DNA of 64,000 bases from Candidatus Bathyarchaeota archaeon (GTDB lineage: Archaea; Thermoproteota; Bathyarchaeia; Bathyarchaeales; Bathycorpusculaceae), in assembly GCA_963707955.1 (NCBI GenBank), contig OY970176.1:128001-192000 (forward strand), written 5' to 3'. Positions 26,832 through 63,161 of this stretch are shown piece by piece. Positions within the stretch are counted from its first letter, which is position 1, and each line of letters starts with the position of its first letter. Below the pieces are notes generated by a model. It was not told the origin of the DNA. It did no database searches and saw nothing but the letters and a program-made list of their open reading frames with translations. The position numbers were made by a program, and so were the translations under genes.

Positions 26832-27037
26832 CGCTGTTTCTCCGCTGTTTGGTCATCCTATTACACACCATGCTTTGTAAATAAACTTAGCGAATCCTCA
26901 AAATGTATCGTTGTGAAGAGCTACCTATCCTTATTAACAATAATGTGCAGCAGGTTGTGCTGAATGGAAGATCCCCCTGGAGAGAGTTAAAATATCGGTT
27001 TCTAGAGTCACTTAGGTGCTCGCTGGAAGGCGTATTC

Positions 27038-28459
27038 ATGCACGACACGTTGAACTTCTCTGGAAAAGAGGCCGTCCTCAAGTTCATCTTAGAAAACAAC
27101 ATAAAGATACTGAACCTATGCCACATTCCCGAGGAGGGGAGGCTGAAGACCCTTAGCTTTTCCACTGCAAATAAGGACAGGGTTCATGACATATTGGAGT
27201 TCGGCGAAAGGGTTGATGGCTCAAGCTTGTTTTCGTTTATTGACCCTGCGAAGAGTGACATTTACATATCGCCTCGTCTGGGCAAAGCTTTTGCAAACCC
27301 TTTTGCGACACTGCCAACGTTGAACATTTTGTGCGAGTATTTGGATGAGAATGGGAAACCGTTGAACATTGCTCCCGAAAACGTATTGGCTAAGGCCGAA
27401 GAAAAGCTTCGGTCTTCGAGCGGTATTGCCTTAAAAGCTTTGGCTGAGCTTGAATTTTACATAATTGCTGAAAGACAGACTGAAATGCTATTTCCAGGTG
27501 CACCAGACAAGAATTATCATGAATCCTCCCCCTTCGCAAGGTTTGAAGACATTCGAAACGAAGTCTTGGCCACGCTAGATGTCATTGGAGTACCGACTAA
27601 GTACGGGCATGGTGAAGTTGGCCGCGCAGTGGAAAGTGACGGCAAGATTTTGGAGCAGCATGAAATCGAGTTCGCACCGGAGAACCTCTCAGACATGGCT
27701 GACACGATAGCAGTGTCAAAGTGGGTTATCCGAAATGTCTGCCTGAGACACGGTGTGTCTGTCTCGTTTGTTCCAAAGATTGACTTGAACCATGCGGGAA
27801 GTGGAATGCACGTTCACATGTGCGCGCTGAAGGATGGGAAAAACATCGTTGTCAACCATGAAGGAGACGTCAGCATCGAAGCCCTGAGCATGATTGGTGG
27901 ACTGTTGAAGTTCGCTCCAAGCCTCGCAGCCTTCGGAAACCCAACCCCAGTATCGTACTTGCGCCTTATTGCGCGCAGTGAATCGCCCATGCACATCTGC
28001 TGGAGTGCGAGAAACCGTCTCGCCCTGATCCGGATACCTCTCTGGTGGAAGTTCAAGCAAAAAATCGGCAAGACTGAAAGTTGCCGAGAGACCTTCGAAT
28101 ACAGGGCTCCCGACGCCTTCGCTAATGCTCACCTGCTCTTTGCAGGATTAGCCATAGCCGCAAACTACGGGTTGGAAAACTCTAAGGAATCGCTGAAGAT
28201 CGCCGAAGACTTGCATGCAGACCCTGCGCGTCATGAAGAGAAGCGATTCCGGGTTTTGCCTCGCTCGTGTGCCGAGGCTGCAAAGAACCTTGCGAAAAAC
28301 AGAAAGTACTACGAAGCTAGTGGAGTCTTTCCGCGACCGCTGATTGACAAGACAATTTCAAAGCTGAACAGCTACAAGGATGGAAACCTGTGGAAGGAAC
28401 TTTCCAACAAACCAGAGGCAATGCAGAAGGCGCTATCGCAGTATTTACAATACGGCTAG
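27038..28459 (+). CDS. glnA: Glutamine synthetase-family protein
   Basis: DGSS, ELEFY, HGEVG, QHEIE, GSGMHVH, NR..IRIP, EYRAPD; ATG at 27038 chosen. Confidence 0.85.
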   Translation: MHDTLNFSGKEAVLKFILENNIKILNLCHIPEEGRLKTLSFSTANKDRVHDILEFGERVDGSSLFSFIDPAKSDIYISPRLGKAFANPFATLPTLNILCEYLDENGKPLNIAPENVLAKAEEKLRSSSGIALKALAELEFYIIAERQTEMLFPGAPDKNYHESSPFARFEDIRNEVLATLDVIGVPTKYGHGEVGRAVESDGKILEQHEIEFAPENLSDMADTIAVSKWVIRNVCLRHGVSVSFVPKIDLNHAGSGMHVHMCALKDGKNIVVNHEGDVSIEALSMIGGLLKFAPSLAAFGNPTPVSYLRLIARSESPMHICWSARNRLALIRIPLWWKFKQKIGKTESCRETFEYRAPDAFANAHLLFAGLAIAANYGLENSKESLKIAEDLHADPARHEEKRFRVLPRSCAEAAKNLAKNRKYYEASGVFPRPLIDKTISKLNSYKDGNLWKELSNKPEAMQKALSQYLQYG

Positions 28460-28480
28460 TTGTGCTGGCACCGTTAAGAA

Positions 28481-28507
28481 ATGCTTATATTTTAACTAAT
28501 AAGACAA
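28481..28507. repeat. attL candidate: core ATGCTTATA plus inverted arm CTAATAAGACAA
   Basis: Core 28481-28489 is identical to 38260-38268; 28496-28507 is an 11/12 inverted match to 38241-38252. Confidence 0.7.
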
Positions 28508-28553
28508 GAAACTTTATATCCTTCACTGACACATGTCTTATTCGTGAACAAAC

Positions 28554-29663
28554 ATGGAAAACTTGTCTAACGTCCAGACGTGGATAATGAAATGTTGCGG
28601 ACCACGATCACAAGAGACGTATCGGAAAGAGATTCGGAATTTCAGAAACTTTATACTCGCGCGCGGCGTTGACGTTGAAACTCTCAAAGACGAATACAGA
28701 AAAGCCAAGTACGCGGGCGAGATGGAGAAAGAGAAGTTTCTCGACCAAATACACGATCTTGTTGAAGTCTACGGTTGCCACATCAAAACCCTCGCGTACT
28801 CTTCGATGCATGAGGCACTAATCTTAAGCGTGATCCGCAGTTATCTAGTGAAAGGATGCGGCATGAAAGACGTTGAAGTGACACTGCCTAAACATGTTTT
28901 CGTCAAGTACCATAACAGAGACCTGAAGAAAGAGGATATTCGGAAAATCGTTGACCACGCGACATTGAGAGACAGAACCTTTTTCCTGATGATGGCCGAA
29001 AGTGGCATGAGACCTGAGACTCTTTGTGAACTCAGTTACGCCGACATTAAAGAAGAATTTGAAAGTGGCAAAGTGCCTATGAAAGTTGAGTTGCCTAGTC
29101 TCATTTTGAAAGACAATCCGAGCGCGCGATTCACTTTCATCGGCGAAGACAGTCTGCATTTTCTCAAGGAATACCTCGCGGGAAAGAAACTGTCAGACAA
29201 GGACTTGATTTTTTCGGCGATACGGCCAGCGAGTTTAACTGCAAACTTGCGCCCGAGCGCGTTTAGTAGTAGTTTCGGGAGGATCGCAACGCAGACAGGA
29301 CTAGCTGAAAGAGGCAAGAAAGGCGAACGGAAAGCGCCAAGACCGATTAGACTTTATGGGTTTCGGAAATATTTCAACAACAATATGAGGACAGATCGCG
29401 CTTACGTCGAGTTTTGGCTCGGACACACCGACGCAAAGCAACACTATGTCAGCAACGACGTTGAGGAACATCGGAAACGGTATTCCGAAGGTTATCCGTT
29501 CTTGAGGGTGTATGAGTCCGTCATTGACAACGCGTCAATCATTGAGGATCAGAAGAAGAAGATCAACAAGTTAGAAGAGCTGATTGTTGACATATCGAAA
29601 CAAATAGTAGAACAACAGAAACAGATTGACAGACTCGCGGAACTCGATGAGAAGAAAACCTGA
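28554..29663 (+). CDS. Tyrosine recombinase/integrase (Int1)
   Basis: SGMRP (R), YGFRKYF (variant HxxR), LGHT, HY (catalytic Tyr), coiled-coil tail. Confidence 0.9.
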   Translation: MENLSNVQTWIMKCCGPRSQETYRKEIRNFRNFILARGVDVETLKDEYRKAKYAGEMEKEKFLDQIHDLVEVYGCHIKTLAYSSMHEALILSVIRSYLVKGCGMKDVEVTLPKHVFVKYHNRDLKKEDIRKIVDHATLRDRTFFLMMAESGMRPETLCELSYADIKEEFESGKVPMKVELPSLILKDNPSARFTFIGEDSLHFLKEYLAGKKLSDKDLIFSAIRPASLTANLRPSAFSSSFGRIATQTGLAERGKKGERKAPRPIRLYGFRKYFNNNMRTDRAYVEFWLGHTDAKQHYVSNDVEEHRKRYSEGYPFLRVYESVIDNASIIEDQKKKINKLEELIVDISKQIVEQQKQIDRLAELDEKKT

Positions 29664-29691
29664 ACGGCTCAACCTTCCCTTTTCTTTCTAA

Positions 29692-30210
29692 TCAAGACTC
29701 ATTGAGTAAACTAGAAAACTCGGCGAGCAGAATCCGAACGACGTTATTTTTCAGAAGTGCGTGTCGTTGTCTCGCGCGTCCTATGGGGCTGAAAGGCGGA
29801 AAACGTTTCAGTTCTCCCGCTAAGAATGTTTCCGCCGCCTTCACAAACATGTTGAACTTCCCCCTAGACGGTTCTGGAAACATCTGACCCGCATAGACGA
29901 GTAACTCGTAAGACTTCTCAGGATCGCCGTAAACAAGTTCGGCTGTGACTTCCCGAGCCACACTCAACAATTCTGCTCGCAAGTCGTTCTGAATCAAAGC
30001 TGATGGTTCTGTTTCATGGTTTGACTCTGAGACTTCGCTCTTCTTAGGCTTGAACGATTCTTCCAAACATCTGTCAAGTTGCCTCAGTTTAGTCGAATCT
30101 TTCGTTAGGTTATTCTCAAGTCGAATCAGTTTTCTAAGAAGGTCTCTGTCCAAATCAGGGTACTTGAGTCTGTATTTTTCAACGAGTTGAGAGACAGTTG
30201 TGTCGCGCAT
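29692..30210 (-). CDS. Hypothetical helical protein (possible regulator)
   Basis: 172-aa ORF divergent from the AbrB-led operon. Confidence 0.6.
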   Translation of the reverse strand: MRDTTVSQLVEKYRLKYPDLDRDLLRKLIRLENNLTKDSTKLRQLDRCLEESFKPKKSEVSESNHETEPSALIQNDLRAELLSVAREVTAELVYGDPEKSYELLVYAGQMFPEPSRGKFNMFVKAAETFLAGELKRFPPFSPIGRARQRHALLKNNVVRILLAEFSSLLNES

Positions 30211-30246
30211 ACTGACATTTCTCCAACGATTTTCCGTGAAGTCAGA

Positions 30247-30297
30247 GACATTTTAATGTCGGTGAACGGTGATATAAACGTTCGTACATATCACTGT
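30247..30297. promoter_or_regulatory. Divergent promoter with two operators
   Basis: GACATT-TT-AATGTC (30247-30260) and ACGGTGATAT..ATATCACTGT (30266-30297, 9/10) spanning TATA-like GATATAAA. Confidence 0.55.
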
Positions 30298-30312
30298 CTT
30301 GGTGAACAAAAA

Positions 30313-30498
30313 ATGCCGTCTGAAGAAATTCACAAAGTCATCCGACTTGGCCATTCTCTTGTTGTTGTGCTTCCGAAACCTTGGACTACATATTTCAAGT
30401 TAACCGACAAAGACAAAGTCCGCGTCATCTGCAACGGTTCTGTTCAAATCAGCATTATGAAACCTCAACCCAACGAGGAGAGTGCGCCACATGACTGA
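30313..30498 (+). CDS. AbrB/MazE/SpoVT-like DNA-binding protein
   Basis: KVIRLGHSLVVVLPKPW..FKLTDKDKV; ATG at 30313. Confidence 0.8.
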   Translation: MPSEEIHKVIRLGHSLVVVLPKPWTTYFKLTDKDKVRVICNGSVQISIMKPQPNEESAPHD

Positions 30499-30589
30499 AG
30501 ACTCAACCGAACGACGTGAGATCATTAAACGCCTTCAAGACTCCACGAAAGAACTGCTCGCGAAAATTGACAAGATTCTGACCGAGTGA
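30491..30589 (+). CDS. 32-aa helical peptide (absent from the ORF track)
   Basis: MTEDSTERREIIKRLQDSTKELLAKIDKILTE; SD-like GAGGAG upstream; overlaps the abrB stop. Confidence 0.5.
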   Translation: MTEDSTERREIIKRLQDSTKELLAKIDKILTE

Positions 30590-30607
30590 GTACACGGCGG
30601 CGGAATC

Positions 30608-30727
30608 ATGGGCGAATCTCTTGAGGGATGTATTGGTTTCTACGGACATCCGTTGCCGCCGAACAAGTGCAAGACGTGCCGCGAACGCGACTTATGTAGA
30701 CGTACGACAAAGGCGGCGAGAAAATGA
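30608..30727 (+). CDS. 39-aa four-Cys peptide (absent from the ORF track)
   Basis: C-IGFYG..CKTC-x5-C; ATGA overlap with the primase start. Confidence 0.55.
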   Translation: MGESLEGCIGFYGHPLPPNKCKTCRERDLCRRTTKAARK

Positions 30728-31764
30728 CTGAGGAAGAAACTGTCAGGTTGATAGGCGAACTCTTTGTTGCGAGAAGAGATTGTCACTGCGTTCAGACACA
30801 ACACGGATACGTAAAAATCGATGAACCTTTAACCGACGATATCCTCAGAGAACACGTTCAAGGGAAGAAAACCCTCGGTAGTTATCAGCTCACGAAAGAC
30901 AGTCACGTAAAGTGGTTGTGTTTTGACTTTGACCCTGAGAAACTACACGATCCGAAAGAGGCGGTTCTGAAGGTTCTCAAAGTTTGTTCTGAAGAGAAAG
31001 GAGACACAGATGGAAAGAAGACACCGCGAATCTTTCCGAAAGCAATCTTGTTAGAGGCAAGTCGTTTTCCTGATCCGTCTTATCACGTTTGGGTATTGTT
31101 TCAACCTGACGTACCCGCTAAGGTTGCTCACTGGCTCGGACTCAGAATGTTAGAACTCGGAAGTCTGAACCCTAAAGAAGTCGAGGTCTTTCCGAAACAA
31201 ACAGAGCTTTCAGTTGATAGGCCGTTTGGGAACTTTGTCAAACTACCGTGTGGCTTTCATCAGGTAGAAAAGAAGTGGTCTCGGTTTCTTGATCCGTCAA
31301 CCTTTGAACCCTTGTCTCTCTCGATACTCAGTGACGTTCAAGGGATAAACTTCCTTGAGTCCGACTTGAAAGAGATAGAGGCGTTTGAAGAGAAGAGACA
31401 CGTTCAAGTCACGTTTACTCTCCCACAAGAACGCGAACCGTTGAAAGACAAAGAGGAAGAACGCATCGCACGGTTTCTCGCGAAATACTGGCGACAACCC
31501 ACACCAGATAATAAAAGCGGAAACAGAAACTATCTTGAAATGGCCTTTCTCGGATGGGCGATCAAAAAAGGCATACCATTCGAGTCCGCATACAGAATCG
31601 TTGAACAAGTCACGACTCTGACTTCAGACGAGGAACGTGAACAGAGACTTCAACTTGTTCGGTATCACTATCAGAACCGACGAAACATCGGGTCGAACCT
31701 TCTCGGCATCAGCGGTTTGAAAGAAGTCATAGGGGAAACTCTGACGGAGGGTCTGACGACATGA
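30724..31764 (+). CDS. Archaeo-eukaryotic primase (prim-pol) with PriCT-like C-terminus
   Basis: CFDFD (motif I), YHVW (motif II), VFPKQ..GNFVKLP, C-terminal GNRN helical domain. Confidence 0.8.
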   Translation: MTEEETVRLIGELFVARRDCHCVQTQHGYVKIDEPLTDDILREHVQGKKTLGSYQLTKDSHVKWLCFDFDPEKLHDPKEAVLKVLKVCSEEKGDTDGKKTPRIFPKAILLEASRFPDPSYHVWVLFQPDVPAKVAHWLGLRMLELGSLNPKEVEVFPKQTELSVDRPFGNFVKLPCGFHQVEKKWSRFLDPSTFEPLSLSILSDVQGINFLESDLKEIEAFEEKRHVQVTFTLPQEREPLKDKEEERIARFLAKYWRQPTPDNKSGNRNYLEMAFLGWAIKKGIPFESAYRIVEQVTTLTSDEEREQRLQLVRYHYQNRRNIGSNLLGISGLKEVIGETLTEGLTT

Positions 31765-33593
31765 GTGCGCGTGAACTTGAACACGCCGAACAATCTGAAA
31801 GATCAAGACTCTTACAAGCTCAGCCGCATGTTCTACATCCCGCTGGCGGCATCTATGAAAACTTTGTCTACGAACCCATCTCCGCGAGAGAATATGTCTG
31901 GGCGACGATAGAAGGCCACAAAGGGATCAGTCAGAAACAGACCGAGTATGAAGATGATGAACATCAGAAAAGACCTCACTTCTCAATCAACATCGACGGA
32001 CAGCGTTATTATTTCTCTCGAAGTCCGCCGTTAGGATGGATTTTTAATCTTCCGAACAGAGACGCCGTTGACAGTTGGGTCTACGGACAGAAGACAAGTC
32101 TGAACTTAACGGACTTGTGGAAACTGAATCGAGTGTTTCTCCAGACGTTCATCGACCTTCCGAAAGTCTACGAGTACGACACCGCATTGTTATTCATCAG
32201 TGAGTCATGGTTGATAGACTTGCTCAACGTAGTTTTCTATGCTGATTGTGAAGGCGCGTTCGGAGGCGGTAAAACCGTCTTAGCAGAAGCACTATCGCAT
32301 GTCTGCAAACACGGATATTTAACAGGAAACTTGAGTCCATCGTTTATCGCGCGTGCGACTGAAGAACAGAAAATCACACTGATGGTCGATGAGCTTGACA
32401 GTGTAGCTGGAACGAAAGACTCAGACTTGAACAGCATTTTCCGTCAGGGTTACAGACGCGGCACAAAGTACAGTCGAGTGAACCCTGACAGTTTAATGAT
32501 TGAGACGTTTGAAATCTTCGGCTGTAAATTCTTCACTGTTCACGACGAGGCAGAACAAGCACTTCAAACTAGAACGGTTCCTCATCACACTAGAGAAACG
32601 ATTGATGCGGCTTATCCGATTATAGGCTCTGACAAACTCTCTTTCGCGAGAGATGTCTACACTGAAAACTTTCTCTGGTACATGGATAACATTCTACTCT
32701 TACGCGACAGCGCCACAAACATGTTCAGCGGTTCAAACGGTCTATTTGACACACTTGACCAACTTAACCTAAAAATAGGCGACCCTGATATCTCTGAACA
32801 TCCCAAGAAAATTCGGGCATGGTTATTTTCTGAACGTAAGAGGGCCTTGAAAAACAATCAAGTCGAACAAGTGTGTCAAGTCAGTGGTCGAAACACGGAA
32901 CTGATGTATCTCTGCTTTGCTCTTGCAGACACTATCGGGGTAAACTGCGACGACTCTATTGTTCAAGCGTTCGCGCAGAAACAAATCGAAGAAGGCGAAA
33001 GAACTGAACTCGGCTATCTCGGTATCTTGAAAGATGTGCTCGCGACAAAGTACAGCGAGAAGAAAGCCTTCAACGCGAAACTACGCATGAGTTACACAAC
33101 GTCAGACGGACTGATCAAGATCAGCAATAAAGAACTCTACGACACGCTCAACGAGAAATTGAAACAAGAAGTCGGTCAAGGTGTGTCGCCTGCGACGTTC
33201 AAAGGATACATGACTGAGTTCGGTTTCACTGACGGTCTGAACAGAATTAAACTGGAAGTGCCGATACCGAGCGATAAACCCGACGACGACCCAACGTCGA
33301 GACTGTGCAACATCTTCACAGGTCACGTCTTGCGGAAACTCGGAATAGAAGAGAAGGAACAACATCACGGTAATAATGACGGAAGCTACAAGGCCGAGGG
33401 TTCTGCGGAAGAACCCTGCAAACTCAATGATTTGACGTCGGTCTACTTCACACAAGACCGCGCTAAGAAACTATGCGGTGTCTGCGGATACGAGAAAGAA
33501 ACTTCTTGGGAAACTATCACGGTTAAGTCGCAGACAATCGCGATTTGCGAGGACTGCGCTCAGCAGTTCGCGAAGGAGAGAGATAAAGCATGA
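31761..33593 (+). CDS. Primase-associated P-loop NTPase (helicase-like) with C-terminal zinc finger
   Basis: Walker A GAFGGGKT, Walker B LMVDE, GYRRG, CGVC..CEDC; ATGA-coupled to the primase. Confidence 0.75.
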   Translation: MSARELEHAEQSERSRLLQAQPHVLHPAGGIYENFVYEPISAREYVWATIEGHKGISQKQTEYEDDEHQKRPHFSINIDGQRYYFSRSPPLGWIFNLPNRDAVDSWVYGQKTSLNLTDLWKLNRVFLQTFIDLPKVYEYDTALLFISESWLIDLLNVVFYADCEGAFGGGKTVLAEALSHVCKHGYLTGNLSPSFIARATEEQKITLMVDELDSVAGTKDSDLNSIFRQGYRRGTKYSRVNPDSLMIETFEIFGCKFFTVHDEAEQALQTRTVPHHTRETIDAAYPIIGSDKLSFARDVYTENFLWYMDNILLLRDSATNMFSGSNGLFDTLDQLNLKIGDPDISEHPKKIRAWLFSERKRALKNNQVEQVCQVSGRNTELMYLCFALADTIGVNCDDSIVQAFAQKQIEEGERTELGYLGILKDVLATKYSEKKAFNAKLRMSYTTSDGLIKISNKELYDTLNEKLKQEVGQGVSPATFKGYMTEFGFTDGLNRIKLEVPIPSDKPDDDPTSRLCNIFTGHVLRKLGIEEKEQHHGNNDGSYKAEGSAEEPCKLNDLTSVYFTQDRAKKLCGVCGYEKETSWETITVKSQTIAICEDCAQQFAKERDKA

Positions 33594-33997
33594 TTGAGAC
33601 TTCGCCGCTACCGAATGTTGAACCATGCTGTTGGGAAATTGACCGTGCGCATGGAACTCTGTTCTATGTAGACGAAGGCGTCGAATATAGAGTTATCAAG
33701 TCCACGATCATCGCGAACGGAACGCACGACTTATGTGTCGCAGTCAAAGACGACGGTTCTCCAACGATTCGGAAACTCTGCGAAACGCCGAAAAACAAAG
33801 TCATGATGACAAGCAAGTACGATTTTCTCTGGGTTAAATTTGAGAAACCTGTACGAGGCACACAGTGGTGCCTCATCACTGAAATAACCCCTGACGTGAA
33901 AAGGATGCTTGACTTAGTGATGCCGTTCATGAAGACAGAGATGAAAGGTGATTTGTTTGACATGTACGCGCGAGACGTGTACGCGGTGAAAACATGA
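33590..33997 (+). CDS. Hypothetical protein (element)
   Basis: ATGA overlaps at both ends. Confidence 0.6.
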   Translation: MIETSPLPNVEPCCWEIDRAHGTLFYVDEGVEYRVIKSTIIANGTHDLCVAVKDDGSPTIRKLCETPKNKVMMTSKYDFLWVKFEKPVRGTQWCLITEITPDVKRMLDLVMPFMKTEMKGDLFDMYARDVYAVKT

Positions 33998-34401
33998 GTA
34001 GAGGTCTCGGAGAACTGCAAAGAAGAATAATTGAACGACTGAAGGTTAGAAAACCTGAGGATGGAATGTTCTATCATTTTGAAACTTCACTAAGCCTTGA
34101 AAGAACTGTTGATAACGGATGGCACAGTCTTGGAAATCTGATAGGAGAAGTTCAAGATGATTCGGCGACACACAACATAGAAGGCAAAGATTATGATTGG
34201 AGTAAACTAACGGTATCGGACAGACAGTCTTTTTGGCGCGCGATTCGCAACTTGGAGAAAAAGCATCTGATTGAATCGCAGTTCTTTGAGAGAATGTCGC
34301 TTCATCGCGTGTGTTCGGACGAACATAGGAGGGGCGGGGTAAGCAGAGTGAAGGCTATACGTTTAGTTCATATCCGTCACACATATGAACTAAACTCTTA
34401 G
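33994..34401 (+). CDS. Hypothetical winged-helix-like protein (element)
   Basis: MSRGLGELQRRI..RQSFWRAIRNLEKKHLI resembles a wHTH recognition helix. Confidence 0.55.
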   Translation: MSRGLGELQRRIIERLKVRKPEDGMFYHFETSLSLERTVDNGWHSLGNLIGEVQDDSATHNIEGKDYDWSKLTVSDRQSFWRAIRNLEKKHLIESQFFERMSLHRVCSDEHRRGGVSRVKAIRLVHIRHTYELNS

Positions 34402-34440
34402 GAGATAAAGAGAAAATGACGCTTAGAGGCAACCGAAAAC

Positions 34441-34737
34441 TTGAAATTGAAACAAAACCTCAATAGTCTACCGTTGACGGTGAACACTACGCCACATCGT
34501 TACCGAATCAGCACGCGAATAATGACAAAATTGTGTCACCGACTCGGACACTCTTTAACATGTTTCAGTTGCGCGCAACCGATTTTAGTCGGCGACGACG
34601 TTGTGACAAAGCGCGCTGGAAGAATACAAAGCGCACGCGTTTATCATCAAACTTGTTTTGACAAATTGTTCATAGACATTCCCGACTCAGAAGTCGAGGC
34701 GGAAGTTGAGGCGATGGAACTTGAGATCACAGCGTAG
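34441..34737 (+). CDS. Small zinc-finger protein (element)
   Basis: CFSC..I..GD..YHQTC (CxxC..HxxC); acidic tail; start uncertain. Confidence 0.6.
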   Translation: MKLKQNLNSLPLTVNTTPHRYRISTRIMTKLCHRLGHSLTCFSCAQPILVGDDVVTKRAGRIQSARVYHQTCFDKLFIDIPDSEVEAEVEAMELEITA

Positions 34738-34815
34738 ACTTGACTACTCTGAAAAGGTGTTCGGATTTCTCGGAAGAGAGACACCGAATTATCGGCGGAA
34801 GCGGAGGCGTTACTC

Positions 34816-35187
34816 TTGAAGAAACCGATCAGAGTCACAAGTCTAGAACTCGGAATCAACGACCGACTTTTGAACGTTCCGAATCTTGAACTCATCAACA
34901 AACTTGCGCGCGACAACGATACACTATTAGAGACAGATGCCGCGTTTTGGTTGTTCAAAGATAATCTTGCTTTTCGGTGCTTGAAAGAATCGGCGAAACC
35001 TCTGACGTTCCACTGTACTGATCTTCAGATTAATCCTGATTCATGCAGAGTTCGCGCGACGATCAGTGTTGAGGAAATGTTTGCTCACAGTCTCAAAAAT
35101 GAGATTCCATTGCTTGAAACTGCTTCGGAATATTACATCTGCGGTGACGTGACTCTTGTCGCGAAGAAACCGAAAGGAGGCGAGTGA
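34816..35187 (+). CDS. Hypothetical protein (element)
   Basis: TTG start after GGAGG; co-directional with the cluster. Confidence 0.55.
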   Translation: MKKPIRVTSLELGINDRLLNVPNLELINKLARDNDTLLETDAAFWLFKDNLAFRCLKESAKPLTFHCTDLQINPDSCRVRATISVEEMFAHSLKNEIPLLETASEYYICGDVTLVAKKPKGGE

Positions 35188-35189
35188 TC

Positions 35190-35270
35190 ATGGGCAGAAA
35201 CAGAGGCCTAAGAAGTTCGGGAAGACATAGTTCAAACATGTCAAAACGGAAGAACCGAGTCAGCAAGTAA
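35190..35270 (+). CDS. 26-aa highly basic peptide (absent from the ORF track)
   Basis: MGRNRGLRSSGRHSSNMSKRKNRVSK; GGAGG upstream; fills the gap between neighbouring genes. Confidence 0.45.
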   Translation: MGRNRGLRSSGRHSSNMSKRKNRVSK

Positions 35271-35283
35271 GAGGTGAGAAAAC

Positions 35284-35712
35284 ATGGCTGAAGAATCTGA
35301 TAAAATCGGCTGGACTACACCGACTTATACGTCTATTATCTGTTTTCAACTGAGGCAAGTTCTCGAAACGCGCGCAGACGGCGATCCGATTCAAAGTTTC
35401 GTCGTCATGCGAGACCTGATTCTACTTTTACCGCCTGAGATCAGTTTGAAACTTGTTGAGAATGACATCACACACATCAACCAAAGACTCGGCACGATCG
35501 ACGATGCCGCCGCAGATATAATTCTCAAAAAAGCGTTCAACTCAACACAAACAAGAAAAATCTTAGCGGAAGAAAATCTCGCATTGTTTCAGAAAGTTAT
35601 GCTTGAACTGCATAAGAGTGGACTGTTGATCGAACACATCTCGCCGCGTTACAAAGCGCCGAAAGAATCCGTCGGTCAACATCAAGAGAACACCGCGCCG
35701 AAACAAGAGTGA
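35284..35712 (+). CDS. Hypothetical helical protein (element)
   Basis: SD GAGGTGA; 4-nt overlap with the ATPase. Confidence 0.65.
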   Translation: MAEESDKIGWTTPTYTSIICFQLRQVLETRADGDPIQSFVVMRDLILLLPPEISLKLVENDITHINQRLGTIDDAAADIILKKAFNSTQTRKILAEENLALFQKVMLELHKSGLLIEHISPRYKAPKESVGQHQENTAPKQE

Positions 35713-36686
35713 CCCTCATGGTTCTTGAACAACAGAAGTATGATCCCACAAAACGATTCGTTATTCCAGAAGACTGCATCTTGTTCAAAGACGTGTTCGA
35801 CACGGTTCTCGAAGACAAGTGGGCGTTCATGGTGATCTGGGGGCCTCAGAGAACAGGAAAGAGTACGTGTGCGTTGTGGATTCCGTACTTCTTTTGGCGA
35901 ATGAAAGAACCTGACTTGAGTGAGAACGAGATTTGGGAACGCGTGTACGACGCGATCGTGTTCAACCTTGAGCAACTCATCTATAAGATTCAGGACAAGA
36001 CTATGCAGAGAGTTTGGGACTGGAAGGCGAGACATCGGCGAATACCGATCATCGTTTGGGATGACTTTGGAGTCTCTTCAAACAAAGCTGTCACTCAGCA
36101 TCTTGAAGCATGGGATCATTTTAAAGGTTCTTTCGACGCGCTAGGCACAGAGTTCGGCGTTATCGTCGCGACTATGGCGAGTCCTGAAGAACCCACTCTT
36201 CAGCTTGAGAACAAAATTACAGCGGAGATCATGGTTGAAAATCGCGGAACATACAAATATGATAAAGTTGTTTGGCAACAAGACTTCAAAGGTTGGAGTC
36301 CGAGACATTCAAAGAATTGGATGCAGACACATAGTTTCGCTGAGATTCCTATTGAACGGTTCAAGCCGTATGACGATCTCAGATTGTCTCTCGCGGCCGA
36401 GGCGATTGAGCGTATTCAAAATTCAATGACTCAGCAAACCCCGAACATTCTGAAACGACTCAACGCTGACGATATTGTGACTCTTCAGGAACTTGTTGAT
36501 CGTGGAGAGATGACTGAGTGGAAACGTCGAGACTGGTTCAAGGGGGAACGGAAAAACATTGAAGTGAAACTGAAGGCTCATCAGCTTGTCACGATTGTTC
36601 CACGCGGAACGGTGCATCATCTTGACATAACCGCGTACGGACTTGACGTTCTCAACGAATGGAAACGAAAGCAAGAAACCACGTAA
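35709..36686 (+). CDS. P-loop ATPase (viral/Zot-like) with C-terminal winged helix
   Basis: Walker A GPQRTGKS, Walker B IIVWDD, C-terminal KLKAHQLV..ITAYG. Confidence 0.75.
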   Translation: MTLMVLEQQKYDPTKRFVIPEDCILFKDVFDTVLEDKWAFMVIWGPQRTGKSTCALWIPYFFWRMKEPDLSENEIWERVYDAIVFNLEQLIYKIQDKTMQRVWDWKARHRRIPIIVWDDFGVSSNKAVTQHLEAWDHFKGSFDALGTEFGVIVATMASPEEPTLQLENKITAEIMVENRGTYKYDKVVWQQDFKGWSPRHSKNWMQTHSFAEIPIERFKPYDDLRLSLAAEAIERIQNSMTQQTPNILKRLNADDIVTLQELVDRGEMTEWKRRDWFKGERKNIEVKLKAHQLVTIVPRGTVHHLDITAYGLDVLNEWKRKQETT

Positions 36687-36693
36687 TCAAGAC

Positions 36694-36963
36694 TCAAGTT
36701 TCCGTTTTCTCTTCAGCTCTCAGTCGAAACTCTTTCGTCTTGAAATCATAGACGTATTGTGAATCATCAGGAACGTCTAGGATCAGTCTTAGATAAGTGT
36801 CATGAATCCACTCTTTCTGACATTTCAGACAAGCATATCGATACTCATGATAGACTGGCGCGACGTTTGGTTCACGAATGTCTTTCGGATAGAACGGCTT
36901 TCCGACTTCTATACAGACAGAATCACAGTCAGGACACTTGAAAGGCTTCTTCATTCGCGTCAT
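36694..36963 (-). CDS. Small zinc-ribbon protein (element)
   Basis: CPDC..YACLKCQKEW. Confidence 0.65.
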   Translation of the reverse strand: MTRMKKPFKCPDCDSVCIEVGKPFYPKDIREPNVAPVYHEYRYACLKCQKEWIHDTYLRLILDVPDDSQYVYDFKTKEFRLRAEEKTET

Positions 36964-36970
36964 TCTTAGC

Positions 36971-37618
36971 TCACCGTTTTCTCAACAGCTTCGGAAAGTA
37001 GTCCAGATAATCCGCGCTCAGGTCTTGATACCGTTGCATCACACTTGTTATTCGCGGATCAGCCGTCCTCATAGTCCAGCCGCAGTACGCGGCGAGTTCA
37101 TCCGCATGAAAGTGATAGAACCGTCGAAGTTCCGTCGCGCGCAGATGTCGGAGACTGTGAAGAGTGAACGGTCTGACATGTCTTTCAACCTTAGCATGAC
37201 CAGTTATCTTGTACGGTTCAATCGGACACTTGAAACCTTCAAACGTCGGTTGAGCATCCTTCCATACTTTCTGACGCGTGAACGGAAACACAAACTCGGT
37301 CTTAACGTCTTTGAAATAGTTGTACAGCGGCAACGCCCATGGTTCACACTCAGTCGGCAACGCGATGATTCGTTCTAGCCCTTTCCGTTTAGCTGTGCGA
37401 ACTTTGAAAAGTACCGCGTCATGTCCCTCTATCTGATCGAGACTCGCATCCGTTCCGCGTGGGCCTCGCGCAACGGTCATGTCGCTCGGGCTTACTTTAC
37501 CGACAACTTCACTGATTCTTCCCGCGTATAGAAACGCGGTTCTCAAAACCATGCTTGTCGGTACGTCATTTATTCCGTCTATTCTCTTGCGAACTTCACG
37601 GACAGTTGGGAGACTCAT
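36971..37618 (-). CDS. Minimal tyrosine recombinase (Int2), catalytic domain only
   Basis: AGRISE (R), TAK (K), HSLRH (HxxR), CGW (W variant), RY (Tyr); 215 aa. Confidence 0.88.
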   Translation of the reverse strand: MSLPTVREVRKRIDGINDVPTSMVLRTAFLYAGRISEVVGKVSPSDMTVARGPRGTDASLDQIEGHDAVLFKVRTAKRKGLERIIALPTECEPWALPLYNYFKDVKTEFVFPFTRQKVWKDAQPTFEGFKCPIEPYKITGHAKVERHVRPFTLHSLRHLRATELRRFYHFHADELAAYCGWTMRTADPRITSVMQRYQDLSADYLDYFPKLLRKR

Positions 37619-37651
37619 ATCCGCAGAGTAGTACGGTTCTCACATTTAAAG

Positions 37652-37676
37652 TTTACAGTTTATTACAAACTGTAAA
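37652..37676. other. Candidate recombination (res/lox-like) or operator site
   Basis: Perfect TTTACAGTTT-ATTAC-AAACTGTAAA abutting the Int2 TATA box (TTTAAA 37645-37650). Confidence 0.6.
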
Positions 37677-37786
37677 AGACCGTGTTCAAGAACAAATCGA
37701 ACGGAGATTCTAACTCTATTAGGATCATCTATGAATCTATTTTATGAGTAGTGCTTGAATCGGACAGTTTCAAAAGAACTTGAGAC

Positions 37787-38068
37787 TCAGAGACATTCGA
37801 TTTTGCCGTGAACGAACTCGACGACGCGTTCAAGTTCTTCTAGGGCTGACGGCGTTTGCTCTTTCCAGTAGTGTCTCGCGGCGGCCTTCAATACGACATC
37901 TTGATAGAGCATGATTTCGCGGAAGTTTGTCATCACCATGAGTTCTCTAGTCTCAGGATCGTCGGCGAGTAGAACATCAGTCAACTGGTCACAATCTTGA
38001 GGCGAACATGTCTCCGCGCGTTTTCTGTCAGAATAGAAGCATTGATAACACGGTAGTTCTGTTTTCAT
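37787..38068 (-). CDS. Small Cys-containing hypothetical protein (element)
   Basis: CYQC-x10-C-x4-C. Confidence 0.55.
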   Translation of the reverse strand: MKTELPCYQCFYSDRKRAETCSPQDCDQLTDVLLADDPETRELMVMTNFREIMLYQDVVLKAAARHYWKEQTPSALEELERVVEFVHGKIECL

Positions 38069-38240
38069 GCAGAACGCCCTTGCGTACTGTTTTGTGAGTT
38101 CTGGATTTAAAGTTTCGCGATTGATTCAAAGCGCAAAGTTTAAGAATCTTCCAAAGCAGTTTCCGTTTACACGTCAAGAATGGAAACTGCTCAAAGCGTA
38201 CGGTGACAAGTCCAAACGGCGACCTATACTAGACAATAGT

Positions 38241-38268
38241 TTGTCTAATTAGGTAGTCTATGCTTATA
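38241..38268. repeat. attR candidate: arm TTGTCTAATTAG plus core ATGCTTATA (also the tRNA TATA box)
   Basis: Matches attL; core lies about 40 nt upstream of the mature tRNA-Ala. Confidence 0.7.
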
Positions 38269-38307
38269 GCTTGTCATAAACGGTTAAGTTGCAGAAACAA
38301 CGTCAAC

Positions 38308-38385
38308 GGGCGGGTAGATCAGCCTGGTACGATCGCCACGTTGGCATCGTGGAGGCCCCGGGTTCAAATCCCGGCCCGTCCACCA
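38308..38385 (+). tRNA. tRNA-Ala(GGC)
   Basis: GGGCGGG/CCCGTCC acceptor with G3.U70, anticodon arm CCACG-TTGGCAT-CGTGG, GGTTCAAATCC, encoded CCA. Confidence 0.97.
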
Positions 38386-38492
38386 GAAACTTGCCGTTGT
38401 CTCTTATGAGTCCCATCTGTCATGGAATAAGGTTCCGAAGAGTCAGAAATTGACGACAAAGTTAAGAGTATAACACAATTTAATTTTTAACG

Positions 38493-38570
38493 TGGAGGAT
38501 GGTAGAAAGCCAGTTTTTTGATTTTCTCCTTTCCCCGCTCAAAAAGCTGTTCTACCATTCTCCTCAGTGA
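38493..38570 (+). ncRNA. Long hairpin / sRNA candidate B
   Basis: GGAGGATGGTAGAA..CAGTTTTTTGA pairs with TCAAAAAGCTGTTCTACCATTCTCC; AT-rich promoter-like region upstream; related to 26090-26196. Confidence 0.4.
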
Positions 38571-38589
38571 ACCCAAAACAACAAGGGTT

Positions 38590-40203
38590 TTAGCATTCTC
38601 GTCCTAGCGCCCAACTGAACTTCTTTCTCAAGGTCTTCGGGTAAAACTTCTCCAAAGGAAAGTCTACCTGTTCAGCCCATTTCACGTAAGTCATGGGATC
38701 AATGTAGGATCTAAGAGAAGTTCCAAGGTTGTACTCTTTTGTTTCCTCCGAAAGTTTCACATCAAGTTTGCTCTTTTCCAATCTTCTAACAAGAGTGTCT
38801 GTCTTCTTGCCTTGTTCTGTTTTCTCTTTTAGGTTCATTTCGAGTTCTTTGACTCTGTCACGCTTCTTGGCGAGTCTCTCCTCGAAATTTGGAGGGATCT
38901 TCCGCTTGTGGTTGGCTATTTTGGCCGCTTCCAGATTGGCCTTCTTTGCACAATATTGCTTCGCATATTCTGGATCGTCTTTCTTTGTTTTGCAGTTTTG
39001 CAGGTTTTCACAGACAGTGGTTGTACATCTCCAAGTTCTAAACACCTTGGCTGTTAAGCCCTCCATTTTTTCGGAGAGGAATCTGGACACTTTTCTTGAG
39101 TTTATTCCTTCGAAAAGATACTCTTTGCATTCTTTTGAGAATCTCTCGATGTTCTTGATGACGACAGGCGGAGCTTCAACTTTCTTGGTCCATCTGACGC
39201 AGTCTTTGCCCAAAAAATCGAAGTTCAAAGTGTTTCCTTCAATCTTGACGTGTTCCGGCCTTAGGGTTATTGCTCCGACAGTGTCTGCTTCTCCAGGATC
39301 TTTCTCGTCGCCTACCCTCATGTTCACTTCAAGAATCAGCCAACTCACAGTGGCCAGTTTTCGCCTATCCAAATCCTCAGATTCCAAGTTTTTCATTATG
39401 TGAGTTTTAATCTTTGGAATCTCTTTGCTCAGCTTCTCAGCCTTTCTGAACTTCTCTTCCTCAGCCTTCTGTTTTAAGAAGGCGGAATCGGAAAACCAGA
39501 CGTATTTCACCTTTCCAGTAAGTTTGTCCTCCCACTTGGCAAGGTACATCTTTTCGGGTTCCCAGACTCTGCCCTTCCAGTTCCCTGAAGGCATGGGGCT
39601 GTCATGATGCAGGTTGAGAATTATGTCCTCTTGCCTTGGCCCCTCTTTCCACTTCCCCCGTTTCGGATGTTCTCCCCTGCCTGCGAATATGCATGATGGC
39701 TCTGCAGTCCAGTTCGCTATCTCAAGCCTGTTTCCATCGACCAGAGCGTAACCATACTTTTCTCTCAAAACTTCTCTTGCGGCTTTCCTCTGGGCTGCAA
39801 GTCTCTTCTTTTCCTCTTTAGGCATATTGAGCCTTTTTTGTTGTTCCTGTAGCAGATAAGCCGCCACTTCGGAGAAGTCGACCCCGGCGTTTCCGTCGTT
39901 CAGCCATTCGTTATAATCTCTGTCCAGGCAGCTCAAATGCTTGGTTTCGAAGCTTTCAAGAAACTGCAGCGAGGCGTTTTCTGACCTCAAAGTTGTCAAG
40001 AAATTCTGAATGAAATTCCTGTAGAAAACCTTGTCGGGAGGAGAAGTTGGTGACTGCCTCTTTCTTATCCAGAAGACTGCCATTTGCTCTGTCTTCAGAC
40101 CCAACTTTACAGGTTGTCCCTGAATCTTGACGGAAAACCCTTTGTATTCATACTGGGGAACATAGATTCCGTTATGAGCCAGACTTTTCATGCAGTATTT
40201 CAT
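38590..40203 (-). CDS. top1: DNA topoisomerase IB (eukaryote-like archaeal type)
   Basis: HNG, GRGEHPKRG, MRVGDEK, DTVG, FDFLGKD, AKVFRT, ANH, LGTSLRSYIDP. Confidence 0.93.
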   Translation of the reverse strand: MKYCMKSLAHNGIYVPQYEYKGFSVKIQGQPVKLGLKTEQMAVFWIRKRQSPTSPPDKVFYRNFIQNFLTTLRSENASLQFLESFETKHLSCLDRDYNEWLNDGNAGVDFSEVAAYLLQEQQKRLNMPKEEKKRLAAQRKAAREVLREKYGYALVDGNRLEIANWTAEPSCIFAGRGEHPKRGKWKEGPRQEDIILNLHHDSPMPSGNWKGRVWEPEKMYLAKWEDKLTGKVKYVWFSDSAFLKQKAEEEKFRKAEKLSKEIPKIKTHIMKNLESEDLDRRKLATVSWLILEVNMRVGDEKDPGEADTVGAITLRPEHVKIEGNTLNFDFLGKDCVRWTKKVEAPPVVIKNIERFSKECKEYLFEGINSRKVSRFLSEKMEGLTAKVFRTWRCTTTVCENLQNCKTKKDDPEYAKQYCAKKANLEAAKIANHKRKIPPNFEERLAKKRDRVKELEMNLKEKTEQGKKTDTLVRRLEKSKLDVKLSEETKEYNLGTSLRSYIDPMTYVKWAEQVDFPLEKFYPKTLRKKFSWALGREC

Positions 40204-40254: not shown

Positions 40255-40683
40255 TCATTCTTCGTGCGCCTTAAAAAGTTGTCCTCTGGAACGTCTCTCT
40301 TTCTGAAAAGTTCTGTGCAGATGTTCCACGATTTGGTTGTCGATGTACCCTTTGTGGGGTCGGAATCCGCCTGCAAACGCTTTTGGGATGTGCAGGAGCT
40401 CATGGATTATGGTTTTCTCCTTATCTTCCTCGGTCATTTTGTCGTATTTTTCAGAGATCACTTCGATCACGTATGAGGCTGGAAGGTTGAGAGTTTCCTG
40501 CCAGACTTTGCCAAGGCCGTGAATCCGAGCGATCGTGCGTCTAGATGCGGACCCTCTGCTTCTGACGCAGAACACGTACTGTGGAACAACGTGGAACAAC
40601 CCGAGACTTTCTGCAATCTCATCGGTCAGTTTCTTCACGTCTGGAGCTTCGGAATACACTATCGGTATGGTTGTCACCGCCAT
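40255..40683 (-). CDS. Putative metallopeptidase (HExxH)
   Basis: ARIHG, YVIEVISE, IHELLHIP..GGFRPH. Confidence 0.8.
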   Translation of the reverse strand: MAVTTIPIVYSEAPDVKKLTDEIAESLGLFHVVPQYVFCVRSRGSASRRTIARIHGLGKVWQETLNLPASYVIEVISEKYDKMTEEDKEKTIIHELLHIPKAFAGGFRPHKGYIDNQIVEHLHRTFQKERRSRGQLFKAHEE

Positions 40684-63024: not shown

Positions 63025-63161
63025 TTTTGAACCTCTGGTTTGTCTTCTGTTGCTGTGAGGATTTAAGATTTTTGTAATTTTGATTTTTGTTTTAGTCTCA
63101 CGTTCCGCATTCGTCAATTATAAAATGCTTATAAGTTGATTCTGCGAAGGTCTTTCAAGGT

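Follow-up and report, generated by a model that had tools for sequence, protein, structure and literature searches.

The window, by which we mean the whole 64,000-nucleotide stretch of archaeal DNA analysed here, holds a single tRNA gene, an intact tRNA-Ala(GGC), and upstream of it an integrated element bounded by two direct copies of a 9-bp core, the right one ending 39 nt before the tRNA (Table 1). On its other side the element adjoins the host glutamine synthetase gene, and to the right of the tRNA lies a gene for a eukaryote-type topoisomerase IB. The GGC anticodon is carried by just one of the 43 tRNA genes that ARAGORN predicts in the genome; with introns allowed, the program also returned three tRNAs with implausibly long introns (386-782 nt). 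Just past the topoisomerase IB gene, a minus-strand ORF (40255-40683) matches the "putative phage metallopeptidase" family PF18894 (E 5e-21) and may be a remnant of another mobile element.

Table 1. Features of the integrated element and its flanks, in window coordinates.
Feature	Position	Strand	Evidence or remark
Host glutamine synthetase, left flank	26903..28459	+	PF00120 E 6e-61, PF03951; contiguous with the tRNA in empty-site genomes
Host A-rich CCGTTAAGAA, predicted BRE side of the tRNA-Ala promoter	28471..28480	+	continuous with core and tRNA in empty sites
attL core ATGCTTATA	28481..28489	+	repeat, empty sites
Integrated element	28490..38268	+	9,779 bp, absent from empty sites
Left-end inverted arm CTAATAAGACAA, presumed integrase-binding site	28496..28507	+	6 nt inside the core
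Element's own promoter-like motif ACAAGAAACTTTATAT before int	28504..28519	+	score 8.1, best in 28440-28560
Int1, tyrosine recombinase, 369 aa, intact	28554..29663	+	PF00589, phrog_1
Archaeo-eukaryotic primase (AEP) domain protein, replication module	30724..31764	+	PF22548 E 7e-23; phrog_5362 DNA primase E 9e-19
DnaA-like replication-initiator-like protein	35709..36686	+	phrog_5484 E 7e-16
Small second recombinase-like ORF, 215 aa	36971..37618	-	phrog_1 E 7e-7
Right-end inverted arm TTGTCTAATTAG	38241..38252	+	7 nt from the core; the stop of the final element ORF (38067-38252) overlaps it
attR core; with G38269, predicted TATA box CTTATAG of tRNA-Ala(GGC)	38260..38268	+	
Intact tRNA-Ala(GGC)	38308..38385	+	ARAGORN

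The original prediction was of an element lying 5' of an intact tRNA-Ala, with no tRNA fragment at its far end, with the 9-mer repeated at 28481 and 38260, and recognisable by an empty site that would join 28480 to 38260. Both copies of the 9-mer are exact, and neither a long direct repeat nor a tRNA fragment is present at the far (left) end of the element; a search of the organism's own genome with positions 38269-38900 as query returned only the region itself and two other tRNA-Ala genes. Taken alone, the repeat is only suggestive because about 2% of controls share such a word: between the two intergenic gaps, of 94 and 55 nt, shuffling produced a common word of at least 9 nt in 44 of 2000 trials, and 33 of 2000 window pairs drawn at random from the genome had one. 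It is the empty sites, in congeners and in one metagenomic contig, that settle the boundaries. All three close congeners (G010, G001 and G007; flanks 92-93% identical), which are nearly identical and count as one lineage, hold the glutamine synthetase stop, 21 nt, a single ATGCTTATA, 39 nt and the tRNA in that order, and the window is colinear with them through the last base of the left copy and resumes at the first base of the right copy. Another sample, run X4, includes a contig that joins 28480 to 38260 exactly as anticipated, omitting 9779 bases and leaving 9 letters compatible with both sides; its SNPs mark it as a related strain. The identity between the two ends is exactly 9 bp and extends no further on either side. 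No circular attP junction was seen in the contigs of four runs; excision of the element and its attP form are therefore putative.

A third exact copy of the 9-mer lies at 63125-63133, bringing the total in the window to 3 where 0.13 is expected, a number that none of 100 shuffles reached. Two minus-strand ORFs flank this plus-strand copy, the G+C content around it (61-64 kb) is reduced to 0.40-0.42, and no arms resembling those of the element are found beside it. This copy may be due to chance or may be the trace of another element.

The first gene of the element begins 64 nt past the end of the left core. Its product, Int1, scores 31.4 bits against PF00589 (cut-off 27.1, E 1.9e-7, residues 124-295), matches the integrase families phrog_1 and phrog_216, and has a weak match to XerA (4a8e). 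Residues R153, K186, R271, H291 and Y298 are invariant in 10-11 Int1 homologues and the position three before R271 is Y or H, the first Arg alone being anchored through an alignment with a solved structure and the other, putative catalytic residues being assigned by motif order. Judged by its profile match, and in keeping with the conserved residues, Int1 is a tyrosine recombinase. The remaining cargo includes an AEP-domain protein and a DnaA-like protein; apart from these and the second recombinase-like ORF, the ORFs between the core copies could be assigned to no family. No capsid or virion family was found among the 17 element ORFs, all compared with Pfam and 10 of them also with PHROGs.

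At E ≤1e-10 Int1 is matched in 102 of 301 genomes of the order, the best full-length matches being only 36-43% identical; none of the 10 other genomes of the genus holds a close copy, and the viral contigs searched hold no relative at all. Genome contigs yielded 0 relatives with a single-protein query and 30 loci with an alignment query. Closer relatives came from a scan of metagenome contigs, in which three integrases, those of L097, L098 and L099, are 78%, 57% and 66% identical to Int1. Each of their genes starts about 65-70 nt past A[TC]GCTTATA, with a glutamine synthetase gene immediately upstream, and in L098 and L099 a second core copy lies 41 and 40 nt upstream of tRNA-Ala(GGC), delimiting elements of 6,190 bp and 5,811 bp. 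In each of the three complete elements (window, L098 and L099) the identity between the ends is exactly 9 bp, and in L099 both copies are the host variant ACGCTTATA. The hosts have diverged considerably, with glutamine synthetases 65% identical in amino-acid sequence to that of the window, and L099 retains the topoisomerase downstream. Compared at E 1e-3, the cargo of these elements shares only int with the window element, except for a weak 61-residue match in L097, and no clear homology was seen for the small ORFs that precede attR in the window, in L098 and in L099. Counting that of the window, four different elements thus lie at one site in diverged hosts. That three closer homologues of Int1 occupy the same predicted promoter site agrees with the original idea of a promoter-targeting integrase.

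More distant homologues (36-43% identical) use other sites. Empty sites resolved three further targets, none of them in a tRNA body, so that the expectation that Int1 homologues avoid tRNA bodies holds for the resolved members of both the closer and the more distant group. In every resolved element an Int1 homologue lies about 40-100 nt from the left core, and int is all that the elements of the distant homologues have in common with that of the window. The first of these targets is occupied in G285 (43%) by a 16,565-bp element whose 8-bp core falls near the 3' end of a gene and within it, with 16 codons left before the stop; the site is empty in G317, and by position and sequence the gene looks like that of ribosomal protein P0. 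The arm beside this core, CTACCTAATTAG, is the reverse complement of window positions 38244-38255, which overlap the right arm. Integration there replaced the last 16 codons of the host gene by 4 element codons and a stop. In contigs L086 and L063, which carry the G285 element, the core AAGTAGTA occurs again 23 nt inside the right end. Because this element lies inside the 3' end of a protein-coding gene, not all distant homologues target promoters.

The second target is shared by G227, G299 (40-41%), G318, L111, L113 and L114, which have one common site with a 10-14-bp core that is empty in G320, G259 and G319. The integrases of this G227 type form a sister subfamily, its members about 40% identical to Int1, which uses this one site repeatedly; the core contains CTTATGAA, and the loci recorded for the subfamily and its site are L066 (2903-2916 and 9331-9344), L065, L088, L089, L093, L111, L113, L114 and L120. 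Next to the core stands a TATA-like ATTTAA, and some 30 nt separate this box from GGAGG, the ribosome-binding site of a conserved divergent gene of 60 aa. The minus-strand ATTTAA reading falls outside the two best minus-strand matches of the promoter motif described below, and a plus-strand register scores 3.7-5.9. That this site is the promoter of the small divergent gene is only a suggestion. The third target, in G241 (37%), has a 17-bp core and an empty site in G332; to the right of its att, at about 8977-9292 of L069, there are three tandem units of about 110 nt, of which the empty-site genome has one copy. A tRNA within 3 kb upstream or 15 kb downstream of int was found at 2 of 15 homologue loci (G144a and G057), and Rfam searches of eight homologue loci returned one tRNA and no other RNA gene at att sites. 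The att-site survey leaves out G144a, G057, G124, G269, G109, G086, G058, G117, G216 and G220.

What the site occupied by Int1 and its closest relatives might be was approached through the upstream regions of tRNA genes. A Gibbs sampler set to find one 16-nt motif in the 80-nt upstream regions of the genome's 42 other predicted tRNAs gave the consensus AGGAAAACACTTAAAT, an A-rich stretch followed by about 2 bases and CTTAAAT, with a median start at -46.5 (interquartile range -51 to -42). A literature search gave no usable mapped promoter consensus for Nitrososphaera. The same tRNA-derived motif is enriched 4-5 fold at -80 to -41 before long ORFs (43 and 33 against 8-9 per 1000), as expected of the genome's general BRE/TATA promoter. 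From a motif start about 46 nt before the mature 5' end, the 5' leaders of this genome's tRNAs would be roughly 10-15 nt long.

In the 80 nt before tRNA-Ala(GGC) at the empty sites, the best match to this motif is AGAAATGCTTATAGCT, which starts at -52, near the modal position of the genome's tRNA promoters, and spans the whole 9-mer. Its score of 3.8 is modest, the best match in 80 nt of null sequence averaging 1.3 with a 95th percentile of 5.0, and shuffling this upstream region gives an equally high score in 20-36% of cases. Orthologous regions from other genomes of the order are more informative: the best match lies at -57 to -38 in 18 of 21 and elsewhere in the other 3, and 11 score above the 95% level of the null. 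What is conserved is an A-rich block followed by CTTATAG, CTTAATAG or CTTAAA, with AAGAAA or CAAAA kept at the place of the BRE, while the neighbouring sequence has diverged among the orthologues. We therefore predict that AAGAAA is the BRE, TG the spacer and CTTATAG the TATA box, in which case the core would take in the final A of the BRE, both spacer bases and six bases belonging to the TATA box. Motif and conservation point to the core being a functional part of this BRE/TATA pair, and the reading as a promoter, which draws on motif position, orthologous conservation and reuse of the site by the integrase subfamily, appears well supported. The claim that the 9-mer sits in the TATA box of the tRNA about 40 nt upstream thus coincides with the predicted BRE-spacer-TATA arrangement.

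The most serious alternative is that the 9-mer is simply a conserved AT-rich intergenic word that the integrase recognises, that the tRNA promoter lies elsewhere and that no promoter is split. Such a view draws strength from the motif score of the site, which is not significant in the genus when taken alone, and from the sister-subfamily cores, which also hold CTTAT, so that a sequence preference could drive the choice of site. It has to contend with the fact that no better promoter-like match exists in the 80 nt before the empty-site tRNA, where the next best scores are ≤2.8, that the A-rich and CTTATAG block is in place in most orthologues although the flanks have diverged, and that the motif behaves like the general promoter motif of the genome. 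On balance we regard this alternative as improbable.

The two arms in the window, TTGTCTAATTAG and CTAATAAGACAA, are complementary at 11 of 12 positions, and those of L098 and L099 at 11 of 12 and 10 of 12, with the spacing to the core fixed at 7 and 6 nt. Relative to the window, arm positions 0 and 2 are changed in both L098 and L099, and in both arms together; this co-variation is the pattern expected of paired protein-binding sites and suggests that the arms may be such sites. The best dyad in the window has 15-nt arms with 13 of 15 matches, equalled by 4 of 5000 shuffles. Thus the dyad centred on the core that was proposed for attP stands, and the arms support its layout; the proposed count of 16 matches in 21 does not. 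Tyrosine recombinases usually have an overlap of 6-8 bp, and the 22 bp between the arms exceed this.

The exchange falls within the core, and the tRNA for that reason keeps CTTATAG and everything downstream of it. What changes is the sequence before the TATA box, from AAGAA to AGTCT in the window and L098 or to AGCCT in L099. The motif scores at the tRNA, computed for attB on the reconstructed site, fall from 3.8, 2.6 and 1.5 at attB to -2.6, -3.9 and -4.2 at attR in the window, L098 and L099, respectively, and the occupied window offers no better match within 80 nt of the tRNA. The host stretch CCGTTAAGAA, which lies within the best motif match of the empty sites, is now upstream of int and away from the tRNA. 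At attL, host BRE and core face int and score 5.1, 5.9 and 1.4 when the register is kept, the value for L099 being 4.0 if the -6 register is used. Structurally, then, it is correct that the BRE of the tRNA is swapped and that the host BRE-TATA is pointed at the integrase gene.

Taken together, the data make it likely that a plasmid-like element was integrated by recombination between its attP and a 9-bp core in the predicted BRE/TATA of tRNA-Ala(GGC), and that the integrase subfamily is specific for this promoter. According to this scheme, a plasmid-like element with a tyrosine integrase, an AEP primase and a DnaA-like protein would enter the chromosome by site-specific recombination between attP, laid out as a 12-nt arm, 7 nt, the 9-bp core, 6 nt and an inverted 12-nt arm, and the identical 9-bp core of the host. 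A crossover within the core would rebuild the TATA box and all that follows it before the tRNA, which would be given AGTCT from the element instead of its BRE, while the host BRE would be moved to the other junction, where it would face int together with a rebuilt TATA box. The subfamily to which Int1 belongs would be specific for the tRNA-Ala(GGC) promoter.

It could be argued that the protein encoded at 36971-37618, rather than Int1, performed the integration, since it matches phrog_1 and its translation holds an HSLRH motif. This is very unlikely given that the ORF, which has no Pfam match at 0.01, has no counterpart in the L097, L098 and L099 elements at the same site, whereas an Int1 homologue stands beside the left core of every resolved element. 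The ORF is outside the conserved integration module and could instead encode a resolver of multimers. A 9-bp direct repeat accompanied by imperfect inverted repeats close to the termini would equally fit many DDE transposons, but it is barely conceivable that the repeat is the target-site duplication of a transposase and the arms its terminal inverted repeats, with no transposase or casposase and only tyrosine-recombinase matches among the 17 element ORFs, with arms that are 6-7 nt inside the repeats and hence not terminal, and with four elements of different cargo at an identical site in diverged hosts that share the integrase as their sole common gene.

Between the host BRE-TATA and the int ATG the element has a promoter-like motif of its own, which scores higher than the host-derived one (8.1 against 5.1) and overlaps the outer end of the left arm. 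An equivalent motif, at +23 from the start of the core, is the best match in L097 and L099 and is not among the two best in L098. Owing to this motif, capture of a host promoter would be unnecessary for the integrase, and binding of Int to the overlapping arm could regulate its own promoter. Expression of tRNA-Ala(GGC), in turn, must survive the swap because no other gene has the GGC anticodon. Predicted routes are initiation at a TATA box without a BRE, or read-through out of the final ORF of the element, whose end is 8 nt short of the core. A bolder and rather doubtful extension is that integration rewires the locus: in the lysogen the host BRE-TATA, strong and constitutive as befits an essential tRNA with one gene copy, would serve as an extra promoter for int and the plus-strand genes, the tRNA, left with a TATA box lacking its BRE, would depend on the element through read-through or an element factor, and promoter DNA bent by TBP and TFB might be an architectural cofactor of recombination. 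With the sister-subfamily core next to another TATA-like box, promoter targeting would on this view be a trait of the clade. Were this true, the element would gain leverage over its host.

Integrative elements classically land in tRNA genes, with recombination as a rule taking place within the gene body. Here an archaeal integrase clade uses what we predict to be a tRNA core promoter, through 9 bp of identity and repeatedly in diverged hosts. A single recombination event that parts a BRE from its TATA box would be a sequence-defined case supplied by nature: one TATA box could be compared with and without its BRE, both in vivo and in vitro, and the share of the BRE in the strength and direction of archaeal transcription thereby assessed. 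It is, moreover, one of the first mobile elements of Bathyarchaeia to be delimited precisely, and to our knowledge this group has no cultured model strains. Furthermore, searches for tRNA fragments at element ends would miss elements of this kind.

Several known systems resemble the present one in part. Ty3-type eukaryotic retrotransposons insert at or upstream of the RNA polymerase III start sites of tRNA genes and thus home, like the element described here, to the transcription-initiation region. Theirs are retroviral-type integrases tethered by transcription factors, with no sequence-specific core, unlike the tyrosine recombinase acting on a sequence-defined core proposed here. DDE transposons and casposases bring a transposase or casposase gene and use varied sites; no such gene was found among the 17 element ORFs scanned, and four related elements lie at one site. 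In SSV-type (suicidal, type I) integration attP is inside int, whereas Int1 is intact and its attP lies outside the gene.

Classical integration into the 3' half of tRNA genes, whether lambda-like or pNOB8-type, likewise takes a conserved, single-copy, essential target and restores it conservatively, as described in PMC8371274. There the att of 40-60 bp lies in the tRNA body, as compared with 9 bp wholly outside it and no duplicated tRNA fragment in the window. With the pNOB8-type (type II) the element shares an intact int, and it lacks the att of about 40-50 bp in the tRNA gene that the text of PMC8371274 gives for this type. In Thermococcales, pTN3-like integrases act on the 5' half of tRNA genes, and the tRNA is then read from the integrase promoter (PMC8371274): in both cases the element lies upstream of the tRNA and the original promoter context of the tRNA is lost. 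The pTN3-like integrases are SSV-type, with a split int, a crossover in the tRNA body and a long att (PMC8371274). In the window, by contrast, the int gene is whole, recombination takes place 39 nt away from the tRNA, the TATA box is restored and the exchange affects the BRE side alone. PMC8371274 lists intergenic sites as well, and the word "TATA" does not occur in its text; the TATA boxes discussed in the text of PMC5861418 are those of the int operon. In the limited literature collection consulted, which includes PMC5861418, no paper describing an att core placed within a TATA box was found.

There is also a likeness to the cryptic elements of Thaumarchaeota. For 68 elements with defined sites in that sister group, the main text of Krupovic et al. 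2019 (PMC6563490) gives 39 in tRNA genes, all but one of these in the 3' part, 15 in intergenic regions and 14 at the 3' ends of protein genes, with att sites down to 8 bp and a median of 17. Intergenic targets and an att of 8 bp are therefore already known from Thaumarchaeota (PMC6563490). The word "promoter" is absent from the main text of that paper, and its supplementary Table S2, which is outside that scope, might hold comparable cases. Like the cryptic elements described there (PMC6563490), the window element has a short att, an intact tyrosine integrase and cargo that is non-viral and includes an AEP primase, with no recognisable virion genes. It differs from them in that its host is a member of Bathyarchaeia rather than of Thaumarchaeota, and in that its target is a predicted tRNA core promoter that one integrase subfamily reuses.
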